Positions 2,778 through 60,895 of a DNA stretch of 64,000 nucleotides are shown in pieces. The DNA is from Bacillota bacterium (GTDB taxonomy: Bacteria; Bacillota; Clostridia; Christensenellales; SZUA-584). The notes under the pieces were generated by a model, which made no database searches, had not been told where the DNA came from, and worked only from the letters and a program-made list of their open reading frames with translations. Every line of letters starts with the position of its first letter. Position 1 is the first letter of the stretch. The stretch lies in assembly GCA_023410595.1 (NCBI GenBank), contig JAEYPO010000016.1, positions 17,121 to 81,120 of the forward strand, in the 5' to 3' direction. Both the position numbers and the translations under genes were made by a program.

Positions 2778-3001
2778 TGCGCCTTTACGTCGGTGCCAAA
2801 GTCACATATACCTTTATATATGAATGCTACAATATTAACAACAATGCCATTGAGCCGCAATACTGTTAGCGTTTAATTCACAGTTTCGACAAGATTTGTT
2901 TTCACCCCTGCCAATAAATCGCTTAAGGCTCGGAATGACAACAGAAACTTTTCAGCGGCCATAATTCCCTGAAGTGAAAGTCTCTTTTAGACGCCACTTC
3001 T

Positions 3002-3072
3002 ATCACCCCAACGGACTTTGTTCGCCAGAGACCCCGATTGGGGAGCTGGCTCCGTCAGGCGATTGAAGGGTG
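3002..3072. repeat. structured intergenic repeat, copy A (flanking degenerate TTCACCC-type material spans about 2890-3129)
   Basis: The 23-mer CACCCCAACGGACTTTGTTCGCC (3003-3025) matches 59756-59778 at 22 of 23 positions. Both copies share the outer inverted repeat TCACCC...GGGTGA and the inner hairpins CGGAC-TTT-GTTCG and CCCC-GATT-GGGG. Confidence 0.5.
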
Positions 3073-3133
3073 ATGCTAATTCATTCACCACCCTATCGGC
3101 GCTCCGCTCCACTTCTCCTATAAGGAAGCTATT

Positions 3134-4993
3134 TCAGTCGCCCCTTTTGGAAGAGAAATAAACAGTAAGCACCGCTATGTCCGCGGGAGATACGCCCGAT
3201 ATTCTCATCGCCTGTCCTATCGTCTCGGGACGCACCGCGCTAAGCTTCGCCGCCGCCTCGAGCCGCAGCCCTTTAAGACTCTTATAATCAAAATCAGGCG
3301 GCAGCTTCTTCTTTTCGAGCGACGCGAATTTCTCCACCTGCTTTTGCTGCTTATCTATATACCCCTGATACCTTATTTCCGTCTCGACGCAGTATTCTAC
3401 GTCCCGCTCGAGCTCTTTGCCGCACACCGGCTTAATGTCGGCGTAACCTACTCCCTGCCTCATCAGCAGGCTGTCCGCCTTAACGGGCGCCTTAACGGGC
3501 GGCAGCCCTTTAGCTTCGAGCAGCGCGCTCGCCTGCTCAATGCTCACCGTCAGCCGTCCAAGCCGCCGCTTTTCGTTCTCCACAGCCTCACGTTTCTTCA
3601 TATACATATCGTAGCGCTCATTCGTTACGAGCCCCACTCTTTTTCCCATCTCAGTAAGGCGCGCGTCCGCGTTGTCCTGCCGCAGCAGCAGACGGTACTC
3701 CGCCCTCGCTGTCATCATACGGTACGGCTCGCTTGTGCCCTTCGTCACAAGGTCGTCGATGAGCACTCCCGCGTACGCGTCACTCCTTGAGAGTATCAAA
3801 GGCTCGTCGCGCTTTATGTACTGTACGGCGTTTATGCCCGCAACTATGCCCTGCGCAGCCGCCTCCTCGTACCCGGAAGTTCCGTTTATCTGCCCCGCGC
3901 AAAAGAGCCCCGGCACGTCCTTAATCTCCAGCGACGCCTTTAATTGCCTCGGGTCTATGCAGTCATACTCTATTGCGTACGCCGTGCGCATGAATACGGC
4001 GTTCTCCAGCCCCGGCACCGTCGCGTAAACAGCCTTCTGCACGTCCTCGGGCAGCGACGAGCTTAATCCCTGTATGTACATCTCGTTCGTCCACACGCCC
4101 TCCGGCTCTATGAATATCTGGTGACGCTCCTTGTCGGGGAATTTTACTACCTTATCCTCTATCGACGGGCAGTAGCGCGGCCCCGTGCCCTTTATCTGTC
4201 CGCTGTAAAGCGGGCTTCTGTGCAGGTTAGCGCGTATTATATCGTGCGTCTTATCATTAGTGTAAGTTAAAAAGCATGGGTGCTGCTCTCTCGGTTCGCC
4301 CTTCGTCAGGAACGAAAAATACTCGGGGCGCTCGTCGCCGTACTGCGGAATAGTTTTTGAAAAATCTATCGTGCGCTTGTCCACTCTCGCGGGCGTGCCT
4401 GTCTTAAAACGCTGCAGCTTTAGCCCCAATTCGCTTAAGTCGAGCATGTCCGCGGGCTGCAGCCCCGACGGCCCGGACGAAACCCTGTGCTCGCCAATTA
4501 TCACGCGGCCTTTAAGGTAAACGCCCGTGCAAAGCACTACGGCCTTGGCGCCGTATTCGGCCCCAAGATGCGTCTCGACGCCGGCGACGCGGCCATTTTT
4601 CGTTATTATGCGCGATACCTCCGTGCTCATTATATAAAGATTATCGGCGTTTTCCAGCGTCCACTTCATTACGCGCTGGTAGAATTTTTTATCCTGCTGG
4701 GAGCGCAGCGACTGAACGGCCGCGCCCTTAGACGTGTTGAGCATACGTATCTGCATATACGCCGCGTCCGCCGCAAGCCCCATCTGGCCGCCCAGCGCGT
4801 CAACTTCGCGCACGAGATGCCCCTTGCTGGTGCCGCCTATGGCCGGGTTGCACGCCATCAGCGCTATGCTGTCAAGATTTATTGTGAGCAGCAGCGTTTT
4901 TTGCCCCATACGGGCACAGGCAAGCGCCGCTTCACAACCCGCGTGCCCCGCGCCTACAACTATAACGTCATAATCTCCTGCAAAATACCCCAT
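3134..4993 (-). CDS. mnmG: tRNA uridine-5-carboxymethylaminomethyl modification enzyme MnmG (GidA)
   Basis: 619 aa with the N-terminal FAD motif [15 protein letters not shown]. Full-length GidA-like sequence directly downstream of mnmE. Confidence 0.95.
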
Positions 4994-7650: not shown

Positions 7651-8235
7651 TTACACCTCGCTTTTTTCGGCGAGCACTAATATCTTCTCCGCAATATCAC
7701 GCATCGCCACGCGCGAGTCCATGCTCATCTTCTGTATCCTGCGATACGCCTCGGCTTCGGATATGCTCTTGCGCTTCATAAGTATGCCCTTGGCCTTCTC
7801 TATTACCTTCCTGTCGTCAAGCTCGCGCTTGAGTTTACTTAGCTCGCGCTCCAGCCTGCCCATGCGCCGCCTGTTCTGCACTATAACTTCCAGCGTGTTT
7901 AAGAGCTTGTCTGCGCTCACCGGCTTGGGAAAAAGCGTTATGTCGTAATCATCCACCACGTCGGTGCAAAACTCCCGCTGCATATTGGTAACAAACAGCA
8001 GCACGCTGCACAGATTCCCGTCGCCCACAATGGTCGCGACCTCCAGCCCCGTCATATCGGGCATGTCAAAATTGATGAGCAGTATGTCTATCGAACCCGA
8101 CCTTATCCTCCTCAAGGCTTCGCTGCCCGAAGTGCATACCTCTTCCACCGCGTAACCGTTGCGCTGCAGCGCGTACTTTATTTTCTCCGCCGCCTCGTTG
8201 TTTGCAAGTGCTATTGCTATTCTCGCCTTTTCCAT
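7651..8235 (-). CDS. ANTAR-domain RNA-binding regulator with a degenerate (pseudo-)receiver domain
   Basis: The C-terminal ANTAR signature is ...IEKAKGILMKRKSISEAEAYRRIQKMSMDSRVAMRDIAEKIL. Start chosen at ATG 8235 (MEKARIAIA) because AGGAG lies 5 nt upstream. The ORF-track start at 8319 adds 28 unsupported residues. Confidence 0.8.
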   Translation of the reverse strand: MEKARIAIALANNEAAEKIKYALQRNGYAVEEVCTSGSEALRRIRSGSIDILLINFDMPDMTGLEVATIVGDGNLCSVLLFVTNMQREFCTDVVDDYDITLFPKPVSADKLLNTLEVIVQNRRRMGRLERELSKLKRELDDRKVIEKAKGILMKRKSISEAEAYRRIQKMSMDSRVAMRDIAEKILVLAEKSEV

Positions 8236-18905: not shown

Positions 18906-19106
18906 ATACCGAAATACGATGCATGACTATAAAAGACTACTGACATACGGCTGGACGAAACGAAACAACGTAAACTATTGTTCGCTGAGCCTTGACGGGA
19001 TCGGCTAACGTGCCGCCGCAATTGGCAAGCGGCAATTTTATTGATATAATCGATATAATATAATGAGATCAAGGCACACGACAGATAATTTGAATGGGGT
19101 GGAGTT

Positions 19107-22145: not shown

Positions 22146-22415
22146 GCCGTGCACCCGGAGATCGAAATAGCGCTACAAGAGGTATCACGGCAGGTTGCTC
22201 TGAGCAGACTTATCCGAGGCACACATCCAAAACCGCTTACTGCTGCTACCGTCAGGTCCTGACAGGGTTCACGGCTGTCCGTTGCACGGGGCCCACTCTT
22301 CAACGCCCCTTACCGTTTCCATACCTTACAACGCTATGCCTCAAACCGGGGATCAAACCCTGCTATAGCGGATTGCAGGTTCAGGGCACCGCTGGCTCCC
22401 CGTCTGGCACGGCAA
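22146..22415 (-). ncRNA. ffs: signal recognition particle RNA, long Bacillus-type with Alu domain
   Basis: The minus strand reads GCCGTGCCAGACGGGGAGCCAGCGGTGCCCTGAACCTGCAATCCGCTATAGCAGGG... This closely parallels the remembered B. subtilis scRNA 5' Alu domain. The domain IV core is GTCAGGACCTGACGGTAGCAGC. The 5' GCCGTGC pairs with the 3' GCACGGC, and a T-run follows. Confidence 0.85.
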
Positions 22416-28302: not shown

Positions 28303-28327
28303 CTCTCGCTATTCACGCACTATATAT

Positions 28328-28343
28328 TGTTTCACGTGAAACA
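28328..28343. promoter_or_regulatory. parS centromere site
   Basis: Perfect 16-bp palindrome TGTTTCACGTGAAACA, which fits the Firmicutes parS consensus TGTTNCACGTGAAACA. Confidence 0.85.
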
Positions 28344-28477: not shown

Positions 28478-28493
28478 TGTTTCACGTGAAACA
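28478..28493. promoter_or_regulatory. parS centromere site
   Basis: A second identical TGTTTCACGTGAAACA. It begins 5 nt beyond the parB stop codon and lies exactly 150 bp from the first site. Confidence 0.85.
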
Positions 28494-28497
28494 ATTA

Positions 28498-44007: not shown

Positions 44008-45111
44008 ATGAAACTGGTCTGTGAAAAGAACGAACTTCAGAAAAACGTAAATATTGTGACAAAGGCCGTAGCGCCCAAGTCGCCCGTATATGTGCTCGAA
44101 GGTGTATATATAAAAGCCGAAGACAAAGGGATAACGATGTTTGGCAGCGACGGCACGCTTTCCATAAAGTGCTCTTTGGAGGCGACCGTACTCGAGCCTG
44201 GAGATATAGTGCTGCCCGCGAGGCTGCTTGCAGAAATACTCGCCAAGTTTGAAGACTGCGAGATATCGATGTATACGGAAGGCAATAACATGATAATGCA
44301 GTGCGGCCATTCCACGACGACGCTGTGTTATATGGACCCGTCCTCTTACCCCGCGTTCCCGGCCTGCGACAGGACAAAGGGAGTTACTGCGTTTTCCAAT
44401 CAGATAGTTTCAATGATAGACCAGACGGTGTTCGCGACGTCGGTGAGCGAAGACAAGCCCATACTTACGGGAATACTGCTTGAATTCGAAAGTGAAAAGC
44501 TTAAAATGGTGGCGCTCGACGGCTACCGTCTCGCCGTAAGGCAGGAAAGGATACAGTCGGGGACGGACGCGGGTGAAGTCGTTGTGCCCTCAAGGTCGAT
44601 GCGCGAGATAGCGCGCATACTGCCCGAGGAAGAGGAGACAGTTAAGCTTTATGCGGGCGACAGCCTTGTTACCGTCGTTTGCGGCGATATAGAGATAGCG
44701 ACGAGAGTGCTTCAGGGCGACTATGTAAAATACAAAAACATACTGCCCACGGAACATACGACGAGGGTAATTATAAACACGCTTAATTTTTTAAGCAGCC
44801 TCGAGCGGGCGAGCATACTGGCGAGGCAGTCGAAGACTAACCTTGTCAACCTCTCCATGGAGGGCTCGCTGATGACTATAACGTCGGATTCTGAGATAGG
44901 CAAGGCGCGCGAAGAGGTGGATATTGCTCTTACTGGAAAGAGCCTCGATATATCGTTCAACTCGCGATACCTGCTGGATGTTTTAAAAGAGGTAAAGGAC
45001 GACGAGATAGTGCTCGATTTGAATACAAATATAAGCCCGTGCATGATACACCCTGTGCAGGGCGGCAGCTTTTTGTATCTCGTACTGCCTGTGAAAACGA
45101 GCAATGGCTGA
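44008..45111 (+). CDS. dnaN: DNA polymerase III beta sliding clamp
   Basis: 367 aa with typical DnaN length and sequence (MKLVCEKNELQKNVNIV...DGYRLAVR...). Immediately downstream of dnaA. Confidence 0.95.
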   Translation: MKLVCEKNELQKNVNIVTKAVAPKSPVYVLEGVYIKAEDKGITMFGSDGTLSIKCSLEATVLEPGDIVLPARLLAEILAKFEDCEISMYTEGNNMIMQCGHSTTTLCYMDPSSYPAFPACDRTKGVTAFSNQIVSMIDQTVFATSVSEDKPILTGILLEFESEKLKMVALDGYRLAVRQERIQSGTDAGEVVVPSRSMREIARILPEEEETVKLYAGDSLVTVVCGDIEIATRVLQGDYVKYKNILPTEHTTRVIINTLNFLSSLERASILARQSKTNLVNLSMEGSLMTITSDSEIGKAREEVDIALTGKSLDISFNSRYLLDVLKEVKDDEIVLDLNTNISPCMIHPVQGGSFLYLVLPVKTSNG

Positions 45112-45164: not shown

Positions 45165-45420
45165 AAAGCGGGCGGACAGTGACGGTCCTCTATTCGTATG
45201 GGCAATAAACTTCACTGACGTTCGTTTATCACCTCATACCATACAGCTAACGCTAGTCACAGAACATTCATCTCGCTTTATCCGCCACTGGCGGCGCTTG
45301 CTTACGGTTCCGCCCCTATGGATATTAAACAACCACTATTTAATAACTTTATATAAAATAGCACCTCATCCGGCGTTTAGCGCCGCCTTCACCTTTAGGA
45401 GAAGGCTTATGACGTAATAT
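45165..45420. other. hairpin-rich non-coding segment downstream of dnaN (possible degenerate relative of repeats A/B, or an unannotated RNA)
   Basis: Nested complementary pairs GGGCGGA (45173)/TCCGCCC (45311), GTGAC/GTCAC and GTATGG/CCATAC. Local hairpins CCGCC-ACT-GGCGG and CGGCG-TTTAG-CGCCG. No convincing ORF. Confidence 0.3.
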
Positions 45421-51895: not shown

Positions 51896-52144
51896 ATGGT
51901 GCTGCACATAGGAAAAGACGCAATGGTCCCGCTTAAGGACGTCGTGTTCATACTCGACTACAAGGAAGCAAAGACTAACGACGATACGAACAACGCTCTG
52001 AAGCGTCTGGGAGACACAGCGCACAACATATACATAGAGAAGTATAATATAAAATCCATAGTCGTGACGCGATTCCTCGATAAGTTTTTCATATACTATT
52101 CGCCCATCTCCCCCGCGACGCTATATAAACGTTCAAGGTCATGA
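51896..52144 (+). CDS. remB: DUF370 / RemB-like small protein
   Basis: Resembles B. subtilis YaaB/RemB: (MVLHIGKD..VVFILDY...IKSIVVT...IYYSPISPATLYKR). Conserved position directly upstream of gyrB. Confidence 0.8.
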   Translation: MVLHIGKDAMVPLKDVVFILDYKEAKTNDDTNNALKRLGDTAHNIYIEKYNIKSIVVTRFLDKFFIYYSPISPATLYKRSRS

Positions 52145-52166
52145 TATTTAATTTCTTATAGATTAA

Positions 52167-54083
<1,917 letters not shown>

Positions 54084-54101
54084 GTTTTGAGGTGAAATAT
54101 A

Positions 54102-56597
54102 TTGGACAACATAAGAAAAGCAATACAGCCTATAGATATTGAAAAAGAGATGAAGACGTCGTTCATATCGTACGCGATGGCGGTAATAATTAACCGCGCG
54201 CTGCCTGACGTGAGGGACGGCCTTAAGCCGGTGCACAGAAGGATACTGTATTCCATGAGCGAGCTGGGGCTCTCGCCCGACAAGCCGTTCAGAAAGAGCG
54301 CGAGGATAGTGGGCGACGTGCTCGGCAAGTACCATCCTCACGGCGACAGCGCCGTGTATCTTTCAATGGTGCGCATGGCGCAGGATTTCTCTATACGGCA
54401 CCCTCTGGTGGAAGGGCACGGCAACTTCGGCAGCGTGGACGGAGACTCGCCCGCGGCTATGCGTTACACCGAGGCGCGGCTCTCGCCCATATGCATGGAG
54501 CTGCTGCGCGATCTTGAAAAGAACACGGTCGATTTTTTTCCGAATTTCGACGAGACGCTGATGCAGCCTTCCGTGCTGCCCGCAAAGTTCCCGAACCTTT
54601 TGGTTAACGGCACGGGCGGCATAGCTGTGGGCATGGCGACGAACATACCGCCGCATAACCTCGGCGAGACGATAGACGCGGCAGTGCGCCTTATAGACGA
54701 CCCGGAATGTACGGTGGACGATTTAAGGGAGCATATTAAAGGGCCCGACTTCCCCACCGGCGGCATAATAATGGGCACGGCGGGCATAACGCAGGCTTAC
54801 AACACGGGTCGCGGCAAGATATGTGTGCGCGCGAAGGCCGAGATAGAGGAATTCAAGGCAGGCAGGCAGCGCATAATTGTTACCGAAATACCGTATCAGG
54901 TAAACAAGGCGGCGCTTATTACGCGCATAGCCGAGCTCGTGCAGGATAAGAGCCTCGAGGGCATATCCGACATACGCGACGAGAGCGACAAATCGGGCAT
55001 GCGCATAGTCATAGAGCTGAAACGTGACGTGAACTCAAACGTAATACTCAACAGGCTGTATAAACACACGCAGATGCAGGACACGTTCGGAGTAATAATG
55101 CTGGCGCTTGTGGACGGCGAGCCCAAAGTGCTTAACCTTAAGGAGATACTTTACCATTACCTTGAGCACCAAAAGGTAGTCATAGTGCGCCGCACGAAAT
55201 ACGAGCTGGAGAAGGCGGAAGCGCGCGCGCACATACTCGAAGGCCTCATAATAGCGCTCGACAACATTGACGAAATAGTCGAGCTGATTAAAAAGTCGCC
55301 CGATGTGCCTACCGCGAGGGATTCGCTGATGTCAAGGTTCGGCCTATCGCAGATACAGGCGCAGGCCATACTCGACATGAGGCTGCAAAGATTGACCGGC
55401 CTTGAGCGCGACAAGATACTCGAAGAATACAGGAAGCTTTTGGAGCGTATAGCCTACTTAAAGAGCATACTCGCGTCGCCGCAGATGGTGCTTGACATCA
55501 TAAAGCAGGAACTATTAGAGATAAAGGCTAAGTACGCCAACGAGCGCCGCACGGAAATAACGTTCAGCGCGGACGACATAGACCTCGATGAATTGATACA
55601 GGAAGAGGAGATGGTAGTGACGCTGACGCACTTTGGTTACATAAAGCGTCTGCCCTCCGACACGTATAAGACGCAGCGCAGAGGCGGGCGTGGCGTAACG
55701 GGGCTGTCCACGCGCGAGGAAGACTTCGCGGAGCATGTGATGGTCACGTCGACTCACTCCAACCTGCTGTTCTTTACGAACAAGGGGAAGGTATATCGCC
55801 GCAAGTGCTACGATCTGCCTGAAACGGGGCGTACGGCAAAGGGCATGGCTATAGTCAACCTGCTGCAGCTTGACGCGGATGAGAAGGTGTCCGCGGTGCT
55901 CGCCGCACGCAGCTACGACTCAACCGCTATGCTCGTGCTCGCGACGAAGAACGGCTTCATAAAAAAGACGCGGGTAAGCGAGTTCAGGAACATACGCCAG
56001 AACGGGCTCATCGCTATAGGCATGCGCCAGGGCGACGAGCTTATAGGCGTGCTTGAGACGAACGGCACCGACAACCTTATTATAGGCACGTCAAAGGGCA
56101 TGTGCGTTATGTTTTCTGAAGAGGACGTGCGCGATATGGGCAGGGGCGCCATGGGCGTCAAGGCCGTAACACTGCGCGAGGGCGACAGTGTCGTCGGCAT
56201 GTCGATAGCGCGGCCGGAGGGCGAGGTGCTCGTAATATCCGAGAACGGCTACGGCAAACGCACGCCGGTATCCGAATACAACCTGCAGCACAGAGGCGGC
56301 ATAGGCGTAAAGACTCTGCGCGTCACCGACAAGACAGGCAGCGTGTGCACGTTAAAAGTCGTGGACGGCAGCGAGGATCTGATGATAATAAATGACGCGG
56401 GCGTAATAATACGCATGAAGGTCAGTGAGATAAGCGTAATAGGACGCGACACACAGGGCGTGAGGCTTATGAACTTAAGCGAGGATTCGCGCGTAGTATC
56501 GGTGGCGCTCGTCAATCCGGACGAAGAGTCCGACGAAGAAGCCGCGGACGCGGGCGGCGAACAGGAAGTGAAGCCGGAAGAGCAGGGTGTGGAATAA
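54102..56597 (+). CDS. gyrA: DNA gyrase subunit A
   Basis: 831 aa with the active-site/QRDR region [12 protein letters not shown], the catalytic Tyr context [10 protein letters not shown] and an acidic C-terminal tail. TTG start with GAGGTGA upstream. Confidence 0.97.
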
Positions 56598-56831
56598 TAA
56601 GATTTGTATGCAGGCGGGCGGATATAAAAATCCGCCCGTCTGCGTATATAAGAGACTTAAGATTGGATAGGCAGGGACGATATACCCAACGGAACGTGAA
56701 TAGCCGGCCTGTTACAGGGCAGCCGGATGCGGTATATCCCCTGAATGCAAAGGCGATATAAAAGCCTATTGAACGCTCAGGCATAATATTGTACAATCTG
56801 GTAAACAGTAAACTTACGGGGATGGAGCAGT

Positions 56832-57774: not shown

Positions 57775-59673
57775 ATGAACAGCGGGCTATTAAGGGTTGC
57801 GGCGGCGGTGCCGGCGGTGTCCGTCGGCAATGTTGTAAAGAATAAGGACAGCATAAGGAATATGATAGGCGAGGCCGAGGAGCAGGGCGCAAGCATCGTG
57901 GCGTTCCCCGAGCTATGTATAACGTCGTACACGCTGGGCGATCTTTTCCGGCAGCGCGGCGTGCTCGAACAGAGCGACGAGGCGCTGCGCTGCCTCATAT
58001 CGGAGACGAAAAATACAAAAGCGCTCGTAATCGTCGGCATGCCGGTATACTCTTCCGATAAGCTTTACAACTGCGCCGTGGTGTTCCAGTCGGGGCGCAT
58101 ACTAGGCGTGGCGCCCAAGGCGTATATACCCAACTATTCGGAGTATTACGAGCAGCGCTGGTTCGCGTCGGGCAAGGATATAAAAAACACTGCGGTTAAA
58201 ATAGCGGGGCAGGAAGTGCCGTTTGGCAGCGATCTGCTGTTTGAGTGTGAAAGCATAAAGGGGCTGACCGTCGGTGTCGAGCTCTGCGAGGATCTGTGGG
58301 TGCCGTTCCCTCCGCACGCTTACCAGGCTACGGCGGGCGCGACGCTGCTTTTTAACATATCGGCGAGCAACGAACTTGCGGGCAAGTGCGAATACCGCGA
58401 GGAGATGATAAAGCAGGAGTCGGGGCGTTATATATGCGGCCTTACTTACGTATCCGCGGGGCCGGGCGAATCGACGACGGACACGGTATTCGGCGGGCAT
58501 ATGGTGATAGCGGAAAACGGAAATATTCTTGAGAGCTCAGAAAGGTTCAGGTTTGAGCCGCGTATGAGCTTCACGGAATTCGACCTGCACAGGCTTATGC
58601 ACGACAGGATACTAAAAAACACGTTCATATCCAAAAGCCCCGAGCTGTCATACAGGAAGATAGGCTTTGCCGCGAGCGAAACGGAGCCTAAGTTCAGGCG
58701 CATTGAACGCATGCCGTTTGTGCCGGGCGGCGCCGCCCAGCGGGACGCCCGCTGCCGCGAAGTTTTTAACATACAGGTGAGCGCGCTTATGCGCCGTCTT
58801 AAGCACACGAGCGCGCAGCGAGTGGTGATAGGCGTGTCGGGCGGGCTCGATTCGGCGCTCGCACTTATGGTGTCGTGCGAGGCAATGAAGAGGCTGGGAA
58901 AGAAAAGCAGCGCCGTGTTAGGCGTGGTGATGCCGGGATTCGGCAGCACGCAGGCGACGCAGGACCTGGCGCGCAGGCTCGTTATTGCGACTGGCGCGGA
59001 GCTTAGGGAGATAAGCATAGTGGAGGCCGCCAAAGCGCACCTTGAAGATTTGGGGCACAGCGGTCAGGCGGATGTAACGTACGAGAACGCGCAGGCGCGG
59101 GAGCGTACGCAGGTGCTGATGGACCTTGCCAACCAAATTGGCGGTCTCGTCGTGGGCACGGGCGATCTTTCCGAGCTGGCGCTGGGGTTTTGCACGTACG
59201 CCGGAGACCAGATATCCATGTACGGCGTGAACGCGGGAGTCGCCAAAACGCTGATAAAAGAGATGGTGTTGTACGTTTCAAGGGAAGACGAGAGGCTCTG
59301 CGGCATTGCGCGGGAAATAGTCGCGATACCGCCGTCGCCCGAGCTGCTGCCGCCCACCAAAGGCGAGAGGCAGGACACGCAGCAGCAGATAGGACAATAT
59401 GATTTAAACGACTTTTTTATGTACTACGTGCTGCGCTTTGAGATGGCGCCCGAAAAGATACTGCTGCTGGCAAAGACGGCGTTTGGCGAATACAGCGAAG
59501 ATGATATTAAAGAGCAGCTTAAAAAGTTTTACAGGCGGTTCTTCGCGTCGCAGTTCAAGCGCTCGTGCATGCCTGACGGCCCTAAGGTGGGCAGCGTGTC
59601 ATTGTCGCCAAGAGGCGACTGGCGCATGCCGTCCGACGCGGAGGCGGACATGTGGATAAAGAGTCTGGAATAA
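57775..59673 (+). CDS. nadE: glutamine-dependent NAD+ synthetase
   Basis: 632 aa. An N-terminal CN-hydrolase domain (...AFPEL..., ...VELCEDLW...) is followed by an NAD synthetase domain with the PP-loop GVSGGLDS. Confidence 0.9.
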   Translation: MNSGLLRVAAAVPAVSVGNVVKNKDSIRNMIGEAEEQGASIVAFPELCITSYTLGDLFRQRGVLEQSDEALRCLISETKNTKALVIVGMPVYSSDKLYNCAVVFQSGRILGVAPKAYIPNYSEYYEQRWFASGKDIKNTAVKIAGQEVPFGSDLLFECESIKGLTVGVELCEDLWVPFPPHAYQATAGATLLFNISASNELAGKCEYREEMIKQESGRYICGLTYVSAGPGESTTDTVFGGHMVIAENGNILESSERFRFEPRMSFTEFDLHRLMHDRILKNTFISKSPELSYRKIGFAASETEPKFRRIERMPFVPGGAAQRDARCREVFNIQVSALMRRLKHTSAQRVVIGVSGGLDSALALMVSCEAMKRLGKKSSAVLGVVMPGFGSTQATQDLARRLVIATGAELREISIVEAAKAHLEDLGHSGQADVTYENAQARERTQVLMDLANQIGGLVVGTGDLSELALGFCTYAGDQISMYGVNAGVAKTLIKEMVLYVSREDERLCGIAREIVAIPPSPELLPPTKGERQDTQQQIGQYDLNDFFMYYVLRFEMAPEKILLLAKTAFGEYSEDDIKEQLKKFYRRFFASQFKRSCMPDGPKVGSVSLSPRGDWRMPSDAEADMWIKSLE

Positions 59674-59729: not shown

Positions 59730-59740
59730 TGTGTTGTAAA

Positions 59741-59840
59741 GCTTCCCCTTTCACCCACCCCAACGAACTTTGTTCGCCGGGGGCCCCGGCAGGGGAAGCG
59801 GCGCGAAGCGTCGATAGGGTGAAAACCTGACAAGGGGAGC
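59741..59840. repeat. structured intergenic repeat, copy B
   Basis: The outer inverted repeat GCTTCCCCTT...AAGGGGAGC encloses a core at 59751-59822. The core has TCACCC...GGGTGA, the hairpin CGAAC-TTT-GTTCG and the palindrome GCCGGGGGCCCCGGC. The 23-mer at 59756-59778 matches copy A at 22 of 23 positions. Confidence 0.5.
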
Positions 59841-59875
59841 CTATATTGATGCGCACTGCGTACGCCTCAAAGCTT

Positions 59876-60292
59876 TTATGCGTTTACCTTTCTTGTCAGC
59901 GCCATTATGCCGCCTATGAAGAACAGCACGGAAATGATTGTGCCGAAAGGGCCGTGACCCATATAGGAGGGCAGCAGCATTAAGCCGCCCGCTACTATGA
60001 GCAGTATGCCGCCCTGCTTGCGTCCGCTGCGCAGCTGAGATGTGCCGACAAAGCCGAGTATGACGGACGCGGCGGTTACCATGAGACCGAAGACCGCAGC
60101 CAGTATTATCGCCCCTCCGAATATAGTGCCTCCCGTTTCGGCGAACGGGCCAAAGAAGCTCAGCATCCTTGAGCCCATGAATATCGTCCATCCGAGCAGC
60201 CTGAATACCAGCGAGAAAATAAACGTAAAAGACGCGGATATAACGGCGATTATCGAACCTATAAGGCCGAGCGCTGATTCCGTTTTGTACAT
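59876..60292 (-). CDS. small polytopic membrane protein (DUF4064-like, from memory), paralog 1
   Basis: 138 aa beginning MYKTESALGLIGSIIAV. It shares GGILLIVAGGLMLL and FFIGGIMALTRK blocks with the neighbouring gene. Confidence 0.6.
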   Translation of the reverse strand: MYKTESALGLIGSIIAVISASFTFIFSLVFRLLGWTIFMGSRMLSFFGPFAETGGTIFGGAIILAAVFGLMVTAASVILGFVGTSQLRSGRKQGGILLIVAGGLMLLPSYMGHGPFGTIISVLFFIGGIMALTRKVNA

Positions 60293-60445: not shown

Positions 60446-60895
60446 CTAGACTGTTCCCGGATCTTGCGGAGCGGCGAGCTCTGCGGGGCTCGGTTTTTTG
60501 GTAACCGCCATTATGCCGCCTACAAGGAATAGCACGAACGGTATTAACGCGAATATTGAGAGTAGCGACAGCGCTCCCGCGATGATGAGCAGTATACCGC
60601 CGCTTTTGTCGTCCCTTTTAAGCCTTGCCGTGCCGAGGAAGCCAAGAATGAGCGAAGCCACGGCCAATACAAGCCATATGGCCGCGATGACTATAAACGC
60701 GGGCAGCGCGAGCTGTATGGCGACGTCGTACGTCCAGCCCCAGGGAGCCGCGTATGTATCGATAACGTGCTGAATAAACGGCGAGAGCACGTTGAAGTAA
60801 AGCGCGACTATAAGCGAACCGGCCAGTATGAAGAACGCGCATATTGAGCTTAAAACTGACGCAACGAGTCCAAGCGTGGATTCTGATTTATACAT
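60446..60895 (-). CDS. small polytopic membrane protein (DUF4064-like), paralog 2
   Basis: 149 aa beginning MYKSESTLGLVASVLSS, with the blocks GGILLIIAGALSLLS and LFLVGGIMAVTKK. Confidence 0.6.
   Translation of the reverse strand: MYKSESTLGLVASVLSSICAFFILAGSLIVALYFNVLSPFIQHVIDTYAAPWGWTYDVAIQLALPAFIVIAAIWLVLAVASLILGFLGTARLKRDDKSGGILLIIAGALSLLSIFALIPFVLFLVGGIMAVTKKPSPAELAAPQDPGTV

Follow-up and report, generated by a model that had tools for sequence, protein, structure and literature searches.

A modular family of palindromic intergenic repeats, probably mobile DNA, in Christensenellales-like Clostridia

A structured repeat lies between genes at two places, copies A and B, in the 64,000-nucleotide stretch of Bacillota DNA analysed here (the window; contig JAEYPO010000016.1). 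The two copies were confirmed to be true members of one structured intergenic repeat family and not a chance likeness. The family is lineage-restricted, its hosts being Christensenellales-like Clostridia, and was previously uncatalogued. The window itself is placed among Christensenellales/Eubacteriales-like Clostridia by the source names of its TilS and NadE homologues. Members of the family are probably non-autonomous palindromic DNA repeats, mobile now or in the recent past, of the kind represented by repetitive extragenic palindromic (REP) elements, BOX elements and MITEs, the miniature inverted-repeat transposable elements. This likeness, which takes in the bacterial interspersed mosaic elements (BIMEs) and the hairpin-forming REP doublets (REPINs), was drawn from the palindromes, inverted doublets, modules and terminal repeats of the family, from the mixed orientation of its units, their gain, loss and decay, and from the lack of a linked gene. 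The original prediction, a reading of the window's sequence, had offered either a functional RNA or a REP/MITE-like element; the second of these is the better supported.

The similarity between the two copies is real. The predicted core of about 71 nt at two loci was recovered by local alignment of copy A (3004-3073) with copy B (59756-59822), at 55/72 identity. The 23-mer CACCCCAACGRACTTTGTTCGCC, at 3004-3026 and 59756-59778, is indeed identical at 22 of 23 positions; it occurs nowhere else in the window at ≤3 mismatches and was matched by none of 100 shuffles. A repeat scan of the whole window returned the pair as family D6 (41 nt, 83%), and no other intergenic repeat pair of similar length was noticed in its listing. 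Inspection of the sequence bore out the closing inverted repeats, ATCACCC 3002-3008 with GGGTGAT 3068-3074 in copy A and TTTCACCC 59749-59756 with GGGTGAAA 59817-59824 in copy B, as well as the hairpins CGRAC-TTT-GTTCG and CCCC-NNNN-GGGG that both copies contain. That the likeness reflects a structured intergenic family was further upheld by the finding of 15 distinct long copies. These are distributed over the window's own genome, the metagenome-assembled genome (MAG) OH_CDB_211, an assembly labelled 'MAG137' and the Joint Genome Institute (JGI) metagenome contig L019, from a relative with 82% TilS identity. Loci outside the window carry L numbers throughout.

The family is built from modules: a short unit, a loop-expanded long form, doublets and a core-bearing form. 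In the short, basic unit, which is about 47 nt long, a single base separates hairpin 1 (GCTTCCCC, a 4-5-nt loop, GGGGAAGC) from hairpin 2, and a G-rich tail (GATAGGGTG or GATGAGGTG) follows. Among copies the shape of hairpin 2 is conserved and its sequence and length vary; in L007 and L008 this hairpin is swapped for unrelated, longer stems. Short units were found in L009, L001, L021, L026 and the window, and have two subtypes, one with GTCGCC-GATA-GGCGAC followed by TGATGAGGTG, the other with GGCGC-GNA-GCGCC followed by GATAGGGTG or GGATGAGG. The 71-nt core of the original prediction is the long form, a short unit with about 50 nt more within the loop of hairpin 1. This insert reads TTT-(C)ACCCA, the hairpin CCCC-AA-CGAAC-TTT-GTTCG-CC-GGGG (CCCCAACGAACTTTGTTCGCCGGGG), one base and CCCC-NNNN. 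The short unit L021:8721-8771, when aligned on the model, covers the two ends of the long form and leaves a gap over its entire middle; the difference between the two forms is thus confined to the content of the hairpin-1 loop. The central hairpin is partly duplicated in L007. The conserved ends of the aligned units are GGCTTCCCC and the G-rich tail, the flanks are A/T-rich (TATTTAA, TATA, TTTAT), and all units found are intergenic.

The units occur singly, as inverted doublets, or bracketing a core of about 110 nt. The doublet formed by copy A, a long unit with an inverted short one, recurs at L009 7363-7498 and L026 3593-3735. The core-bearing form, a longer repeat named 'M4' (about 170-230 nt), has an inverted short unit CACCTCATCCGGCGC..GCGCCACCTTCC, the conserved core of about 110 nt, and hairpin 1 with TTTAT. 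Full copies are L002:1090-1255, L007:7040-7205, L008:4445-4620 and L021:8790-8965, and they usually lie 20-90 nt or less from a long or short unit. In L021 the ends of 'M4' pair, CACCTCATCCGGCGC... with ...GCGCCGGATGAGGAG, as a terminal inverted repeat of about 30 nt. The units of the window, their parts and the features that bound them are listed below; covariance model R1 and two profile hidden Markov models (HMMs), one for the long form and one for the short or 'mini' form, served to call them.

2989-3075, plus strand: copy A, a long-form unit (R1 66.1 bits, E 5e-14; nhmmer E 1.9e-21)
3006-3030, plus strand: central hairpin of copy A, CCCC-AA-CGGAC-TTT-GTTCG-CC-AGAG
3032-3043, plus strand: hairpin CCCC-GATT-GGGG of copy A
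3086-3129, minus strand: inverted short ('mini') unit, following copy A directly (E 6.4e-10 by nhmmer with the mini HMM)
59741-59845, plus strand: copy B, a long-form unit with a terminal inverted repeat (R1 82.4 bits, E 4e-18)
59741-59748 and 59792-59799: hairpin-1 arms of copy B, GCTTCCCC and GGGGAAGC
Within the hairpin-1 loop of copy B: the insert, with TTTCACCCA, hairpin CCCCAACGAACTTTGTTCGCCGGGG at 59758-59782 and CCCC at 59784-59787
59800-59812: hairpin 2 of copy B, GGCGC-GAA-GCGTC
59813-59824: tail of copy B, GATAGGGTGAAA
59832-59842: 3' inverted repeat of copy B, AAGGGGAGCCT
45362-45406, minus strand: short unit at a third window locus, past dnaN in the intergenic spacer (28/32 positions shared with L007, at the left end of the longer repeat there)
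45237-45301, plus strand: fragment of the longer associated repeat 'M4' (54/67 identity to L008 4525-4589; 39/53 to L021 8871-8923)
59699-59725, plus strand: intrinsic terminator of nadE, just upstream of copy B and outside the repeat (terminator scan; conserved in L021)
2778-2904, minus strand: conserved tilS-proximal upstream region, outside the repeat, which bounds the repeat-filled part of the spacer (116/127 identity to L020, gapless)

Copy A, whose hairpin 1 has a degenerate 5' arm, lies in the 356-nt spacer that separates mnmG (3134-4993) from tilS (1419-2777), both on the minus strand, in the gene order mnmE-mnmG-repeat-tilS-hpt-ftsH. With the short unit that follows it, copy A makes an inverted doublet (2989-3129) in which an inverted repeat, 3067-3075 with 3086-3094, links the two. 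On the minus strand the short unit reads GCTTCC-TTATA-GGAGAAG-T-GGAGC-GGA-GCGCC-GATAGGGTGGTG, and the pattern GGCGCGNAGCGNCGATAGGGT matches inside it at 3090-3110(-). This unit accounts for one of two TTCACCC-like fragments that had been reported near copy A, at about 3085, which is a real part of the family (nhmmer E=6e-10); the other, at about 2905, falls in tilS-upstream sequence conserved in relatives and is not clearly a unit. Copy B lies, as had been described, between nadE (57775-59673, plus) with its terminator and a convergent gene, which encodes 138 amino acids (aa) and has no Pfam family. Its terminal inverted repeat pairs 59737-59750 with 59832-59845 (14 nt, 79%), the 3' end AAGGGGAGCCT being complementary to the 5' AGCTTCCCCTT. 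The 45362-45406 unit, beside dnaN (assigned by Pfam), reads GCCTTCTCC-TAAA-GGTGAAGGC-GGCG-CTAAA-CGCC-GGATGAGGTG on the minus strand; two hairpins are predicted in it, and its model matches on their own are weak (nhmmer E 0.18; R1 E 0.15). A weaker relative suggested at 18966-18990 was matched by neither the long nor the mini HMM nor by the covariance model, and is not counted as a member.

The hairpins are maintained across the family, since both paired cells and two-sided changes exceed those of shuffles in an alignment that was itself fitted to the structure. When the 15 distinct copies were placed on the model, 88.4% of cells were paired versus 81.6% in shuffles, a value that 0 of 500 shuffles reached. 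Thirteen pairs had changed on both sides versus 4.1 in shuffles (again 0/500) and 3-6 in slid controls, and these compensatory changes are spread over three helices. The compensatory changes are one of the points in favour of a functional structured RNA read from the plus strand, which could be a small RNA, a cis-regulatory element or a small ribozyme, and whose active fold would be a multi-stem junction with a possible pseudoknot, the arms of hairpin 1 crossing the CACCC/GGGTG pair. The constant shape of hairpin 2 despite its changes in sequence and length, the Shine-Dalgarno-like tail GAGGTG/GGGTGA with CACCC as its complement, and the single difference in the 23-mer, which is compatible with a G-U pair on the plus strand, also speak for such an RNA.

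On balance, however, a functional RNA is distinctly improbable. The argument that the 23-mer difference identifies the plus strand as the RNA does not hold over the family, where stem mismatches on the element strand in the 15 distinct copies comprise 6 of the G-U type and 10 of the A-C type, so that wobble pairs have no strand bias. Units stand in both orientations relative to flanking genes and to one another. For copy B (59738-59848) the folding energies of the two strands are -49.8 kcal/mol (z -3.2) and -50.4 kcal/mol (z -3.0); the two strands of the 45.4-kb unit fold about equally, and the copy A doublet folds better on the minus strand (-58.3 vs -44.2 kcal/mol). Copy A is antisense to mnmG-tilS, no promoter-like site was found upstream of copies A or B, and the copies share no conserved gene neighbour. 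Rfam 15 gave no family at gathering threshold for the window and 10 related loci, nor at E<=10 for the 356-nt spacer, so the check proposed against known RNA families returned nothing for the repeat. The matches that Rfam did yield were a signal recognition particle (SRP) RNA in the window, an S-adenosylmethionine (SAM) riboswitch in L008 and a chance snoR126 at E=4. The prediction had also pointed to preserved helices with differing loops, as expected of a functional RNA or a REP/MITE-like element. That pattern is real, and palindromic DNA repeats predict it equally. A hammerhead ribozyme, brought to mind by CTGATGAGG in the MAG137 copies, was rejected: those copies carry CTGATGAGGTG without GAAA after the next stem, the motif is missing from the window copies, which read TTGAAGGGTG and GATAGGGTG, and no Rfam hammerhead match occurred in the window or the related loci scanned.

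Copies turn over between relatives. In L017 (67% TilS identity) mnmG and tilS are neighbours only 53 nt apart and the element is absent from between them; relatives at 82% and 88% TilS identity have diverged versions of the repeat in this spacer. The repeat part of copy A is 61% identical (83/135, with 31 gap columns) to its orthologue in L020 (88% TilS), in which the central hairpin is destroyed; nearby, the tilS-proximal 127 nt are 91% identical and tilS 87%. The loss of the central hairpin from an element that has diverged this far beyond the neighbouring spacer argues against a constrained RNA, as does the lack of copies in close relatives. In L021, whose NadE is 93% identical, the nadE terminator and the 138-aa gene beyond it are both retained and copy B is absent. 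L021 is also without the cluster that the window's genome has at L026 3593-3840, and its gyrA spacer carries short units where the window spacer has none. Model R1 found no match in L017 or L023. Strain-level relatives retain copies A and B. The suggestion that copies sit at synteny junctions was not sustained: because both gene adjacencies, mnmG-tilS (L017) and nadE with the 138-aa gene (L021), occur without the element, it filled existing spacers and marks no breakpoints. As a separate observation at the nadE locus, L023:6222-7413 (88% NadE) has two extra genes, for a PK_C-like protein of 184 aa and an HxlR regulator, between nadE and the small membrane-protein gene; gene content at this junction is variable independently of the repeat.

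Two observations speak for use by the host. Copies lie just past the end of a gene or past a terminator (that of nadE for copy B; also L001, L002, L008, L026), and in some copies outside the window a T-rich run on the opposite strand follows hairpin 1, as in L001 CTTCCCCTGCAAGGGGAAGCTTTTTTAT and L007 GGGGAAGGCTTTATTTTTG. The repeat could then be a structural element like some REPs and BIMEs, working as a terminator, as a stabiliser of RNA 3' ends or as a binding site for nucleoid or topology proteins. This explanation is unlikely, if somewhat less so than a functional RNA. The terminator scan called no intrinsic terminator at the window units, its sole call there being the nadE terminator; in L001, L002 and L008 a separate, ordinary terminator already stands between gene and repeat; and the copies are dispensable in close relatives. 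Such a use would moreover be a secondary role and not a rival origin.

The reading as non-autonomous mobile DNA, the probable one, draws together the remaining findings. First, the units are short, palindromic and extragenic and form inverted doublets, as REPs and REPINs do (window 2989-3129, L009 7363-7498, L026 3593-3735). Second, copy B and, in L021, the longer form have terminal inverted repeats, as MITEs do. Third, there is insertion polymorphism: L021 is without copy B and the L026 cluster and has its own gyrA units, and L017 is empty. The units would be spread by an enzyme whose gene lies elsewhere in the genome and which would recognise their hairpin-forming ends, in a way comparable to REP/REPINs and their REP-associated tyrosine transposases (RAYTs), to IS200/IS605-derived elements or to MITEs. 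The units would pile up in spacers that tolerate insertion, often past terminators between convergent genes, and then decay, and host effects such as 3'-end stabilisation of RNA or weak termination would be secondary.

Several observations weigh against this reading. No transposase or recurrent gene adjoins any copy among the genes around the copies; no Y1 transposase is among the genes annotated there, no search aimed at RAYT genes having been made. In about 220 kb of DNA examined, no insertion sequence had the ends expected of a parent element, and plasmid and phage records gave no match either. The GTAG head that is a hallmark of REPs is absent from the aligned units. Comparison of the window with L021 provided no clean empty-versus-filled site from which a target-site duplication could be read, and exact insertion boundaries were not obtained because the spacers are otherwise unalignable. 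The pairing figures are inflated by the fit of the alignment to the structure. The near-invariance of the central hairpin in L001-L009 reflects ascertainment, since those copies were recovered with an exact 21-mer; copies found later with an HMM or R1 vary in this hairpin. Finally, only a few genomes carry the family and the JGI, viral, plasmid and phage scans held no relatives, so recent activity is read from differences between relatives only.

Comparison with known systems places the family near several of them. Like REPs, BIMEs and REPINs, its units are short, extragenic and palindromic, with inverted doublets forming a long hairpin; they occur in mosaics with other small repeats, contain no transposase and differ in their copies between relatives. 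Unlike those elements, the unit has two hairpins and a tail in place of a single hairpin, and no GTAG-type head. The density of the present family is about one cluster per 20 kb as measured over 82 kb alone (4 clusters, with 4 long and 3 short units, in the 82.4 kb read of the window's genome). REPINs are themselves described as non-autonomous, their dispersal being attributed to RAYT transposases that are encoded in single copy, and Group 1 of the RAYTs has been reported in Clostridia too (PMC5581495). The MITE-like features are a length of 50-250 nt, terminal inverted repeats (14 nt in copy B, about 30 nt in 'M4'), non-coding sequence in multiple copies whose presence differs between relatives, and A/T-rich flanks (TATTTAA, TTTAT). 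In contrast to a MITE, no parent with matching ends was found. The BOX elements of Streptococcus pneumoniae (boxA-boxB-boxC) also belong to a Gram-positive host, have optional inner modules between complementary outer ones, form stable predicted stem-loops, are intergenic and have no known transposase. They are not known to resemble the present family in sequence, and they have tandem boxB copies where the optional module here sits in a hairpin loop. The bcr repeats of the Bacillus cereus group are likewise interspersed in Firmicutes, some with a conserved predicted RNA structure and compensatory changes, and are not known to be related in sequence.

The insert of about 50 nt invites a more specific proposal. 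It may be a separate micro-element that targets the hairpin-1 loop, as mobile DNA nested within mobile DNA, or it may make the unit a switching RNA in which three CCCC runs would compete for two GGGG runs, and in which the anti-Shine-Dalgarno-like CACCC would pair with the Shine-Dalgarno-like tail and form a pseudoknot with hairpin 1. Taken together, these two versions have a small chance of being right. Were the proposal true, it would describe the first REPIN-like system in Christensenellales-like Clostridia.

The family was sought widely and found in few places. When 185,579 species-representative genomes were scanned for an exact pattern (21-mer), only two assemblies proved to contain true relatives, the Bacillota MAG OH_CDB_211 (2 exact matches; L001, L009) and 'Burkholderiales MAG137' (JBLNCA01; 6 exact copies on L002, L003, L004, L007 and L008); two further matches were due to chance. 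An HMM and R1 added four copies: one at L009 7363-7448, a diverged one in L019, and, just outside the window in its own genome, L026 3593-3680 and 3753-3840. A 19-base pattern had 6 matches in JGI metagenomes, none of them relatives. Viral contigs had no match to the family pattern, nor did plasmid and phage records by blastn. No description of the family turned up in the literature, which was searched both for sequence strings and by topic.

The Burkholderiales label raised the idea of spread across phyla, which is doubtful. The G+C content of the MAG137 contigs, 49-54%, is like that of the window, and the contigs also have a LytR_cpsA_psr gene and, ahead of metK, an S-box (SAM-I) riboswitch (L008 6070-6157). 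These features point to Bacillota-like DNA, and the label or the binning may be wrong.

Most of the JGI matches are the 5' end of an unrelated gene encoding MANKVRWG, and this explains another feature of the core. Its minus strand reads ...ANKVRWG, and the original prediction had remarked on that reading; the repeat might then be a coding remnant, whether a piece of a pseudogene or a gene for a small peptide. The 20-mer CCCAACGNACTTTGTTCGCC (reverse strand ATGGCGAACAAAGTNCGTTGGGG) does begin a real, conserved gene (MANKVRWG...) in unrelated genomes, of Acidobacteriota and Anaerolineae, and in soil metagenomes (chance matches L005, L006, L010, L011, L014, L015). Yet the likeness to those genes stops at the 20-mer, and by the author's estimate, in which the size of the metagenome collection was assumed, chance alone would give about 1 match (genome scan, 20 bases) to about 8 (metagenome, 19 bases). 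Indels shift the reading frames between copies, and a chimeric six-frame peptide of the element, compared with 5.8 billion proteins, gave 121 word candidates and 0 significant matches. The ANKVRWG reading is thus a coincidence with a gene start, the peptide idea was rejected, and a coding origin of any sort has almost nothing to recommend it.

The family adds an undescribed structured intergenic repeat, with a clear modular anatomy, for poorly studied uncultured anaerobes. It is a new repeat family of a familiar kind and opens no long-standing question. Its covariance model and HMMs can be used to mask such repeats in screens for RNA motifs, where compensatory changes left unmasked would yield false riboswitch or small-RNA candidates, and the differences between close relatives provide strain-level markers. 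A mobilising enzyme, if found, would extend a REPIN/RAYT-type relationship to this clade.

A second palindromic repeat of about 85 nt, unrelated in sequence, TGTCATTC..GAAGGAGC...GAATGACA, occurs at L021:11995-12078, L001:3565-3660 and L009:7530-7570 and 7693-7725. In L021 it fills the spacer downstream of nadE, at the very site that copy B takes up in the window, and L001 and L009 contain it together with the present family. The window itself matches it for just 11 nt, at 2930-2940, too weakly to be called.

Other features of the window and its genome were noted in passing. The 138-aa gene beyond copy B and the adjoining gene of 149 aa (DUF4064), both for small membrane proteins, share a 42-nt stretch that is 81% identical (59889-59930 vs 60495-60536), and from this they appear to be tandem paralogues. 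The 64 kb that contain mnmE and mnmG also include dnaN, gyrB and gyrA (44008-45111 and about 52000-56600), and the replication-origin region of the chromosome is probably spanned by the window. The SRP RNA is of the large bacterial type, at 22147-22412 (-) (Rfam RF01854, 185.8 bits). After the phosphoenolpyruvate carboxykinase (PEPCK) gene in the window's genome, comparison of L025:18050-18400 with L024 showed about 300 nt of A/T-rich sequence in which two small open reading frames are called; this segment lies outside this repeat family and is missing in the strain-level relative GCA_023426525.1. A perfect 18-nt palindrome, ATTGTTTCACGTGAAACA(AT), occurs twice, at 28326-28343 and 28478-28495, 134 nt apart, and the two may be a pair of putative regulator-binding sites.

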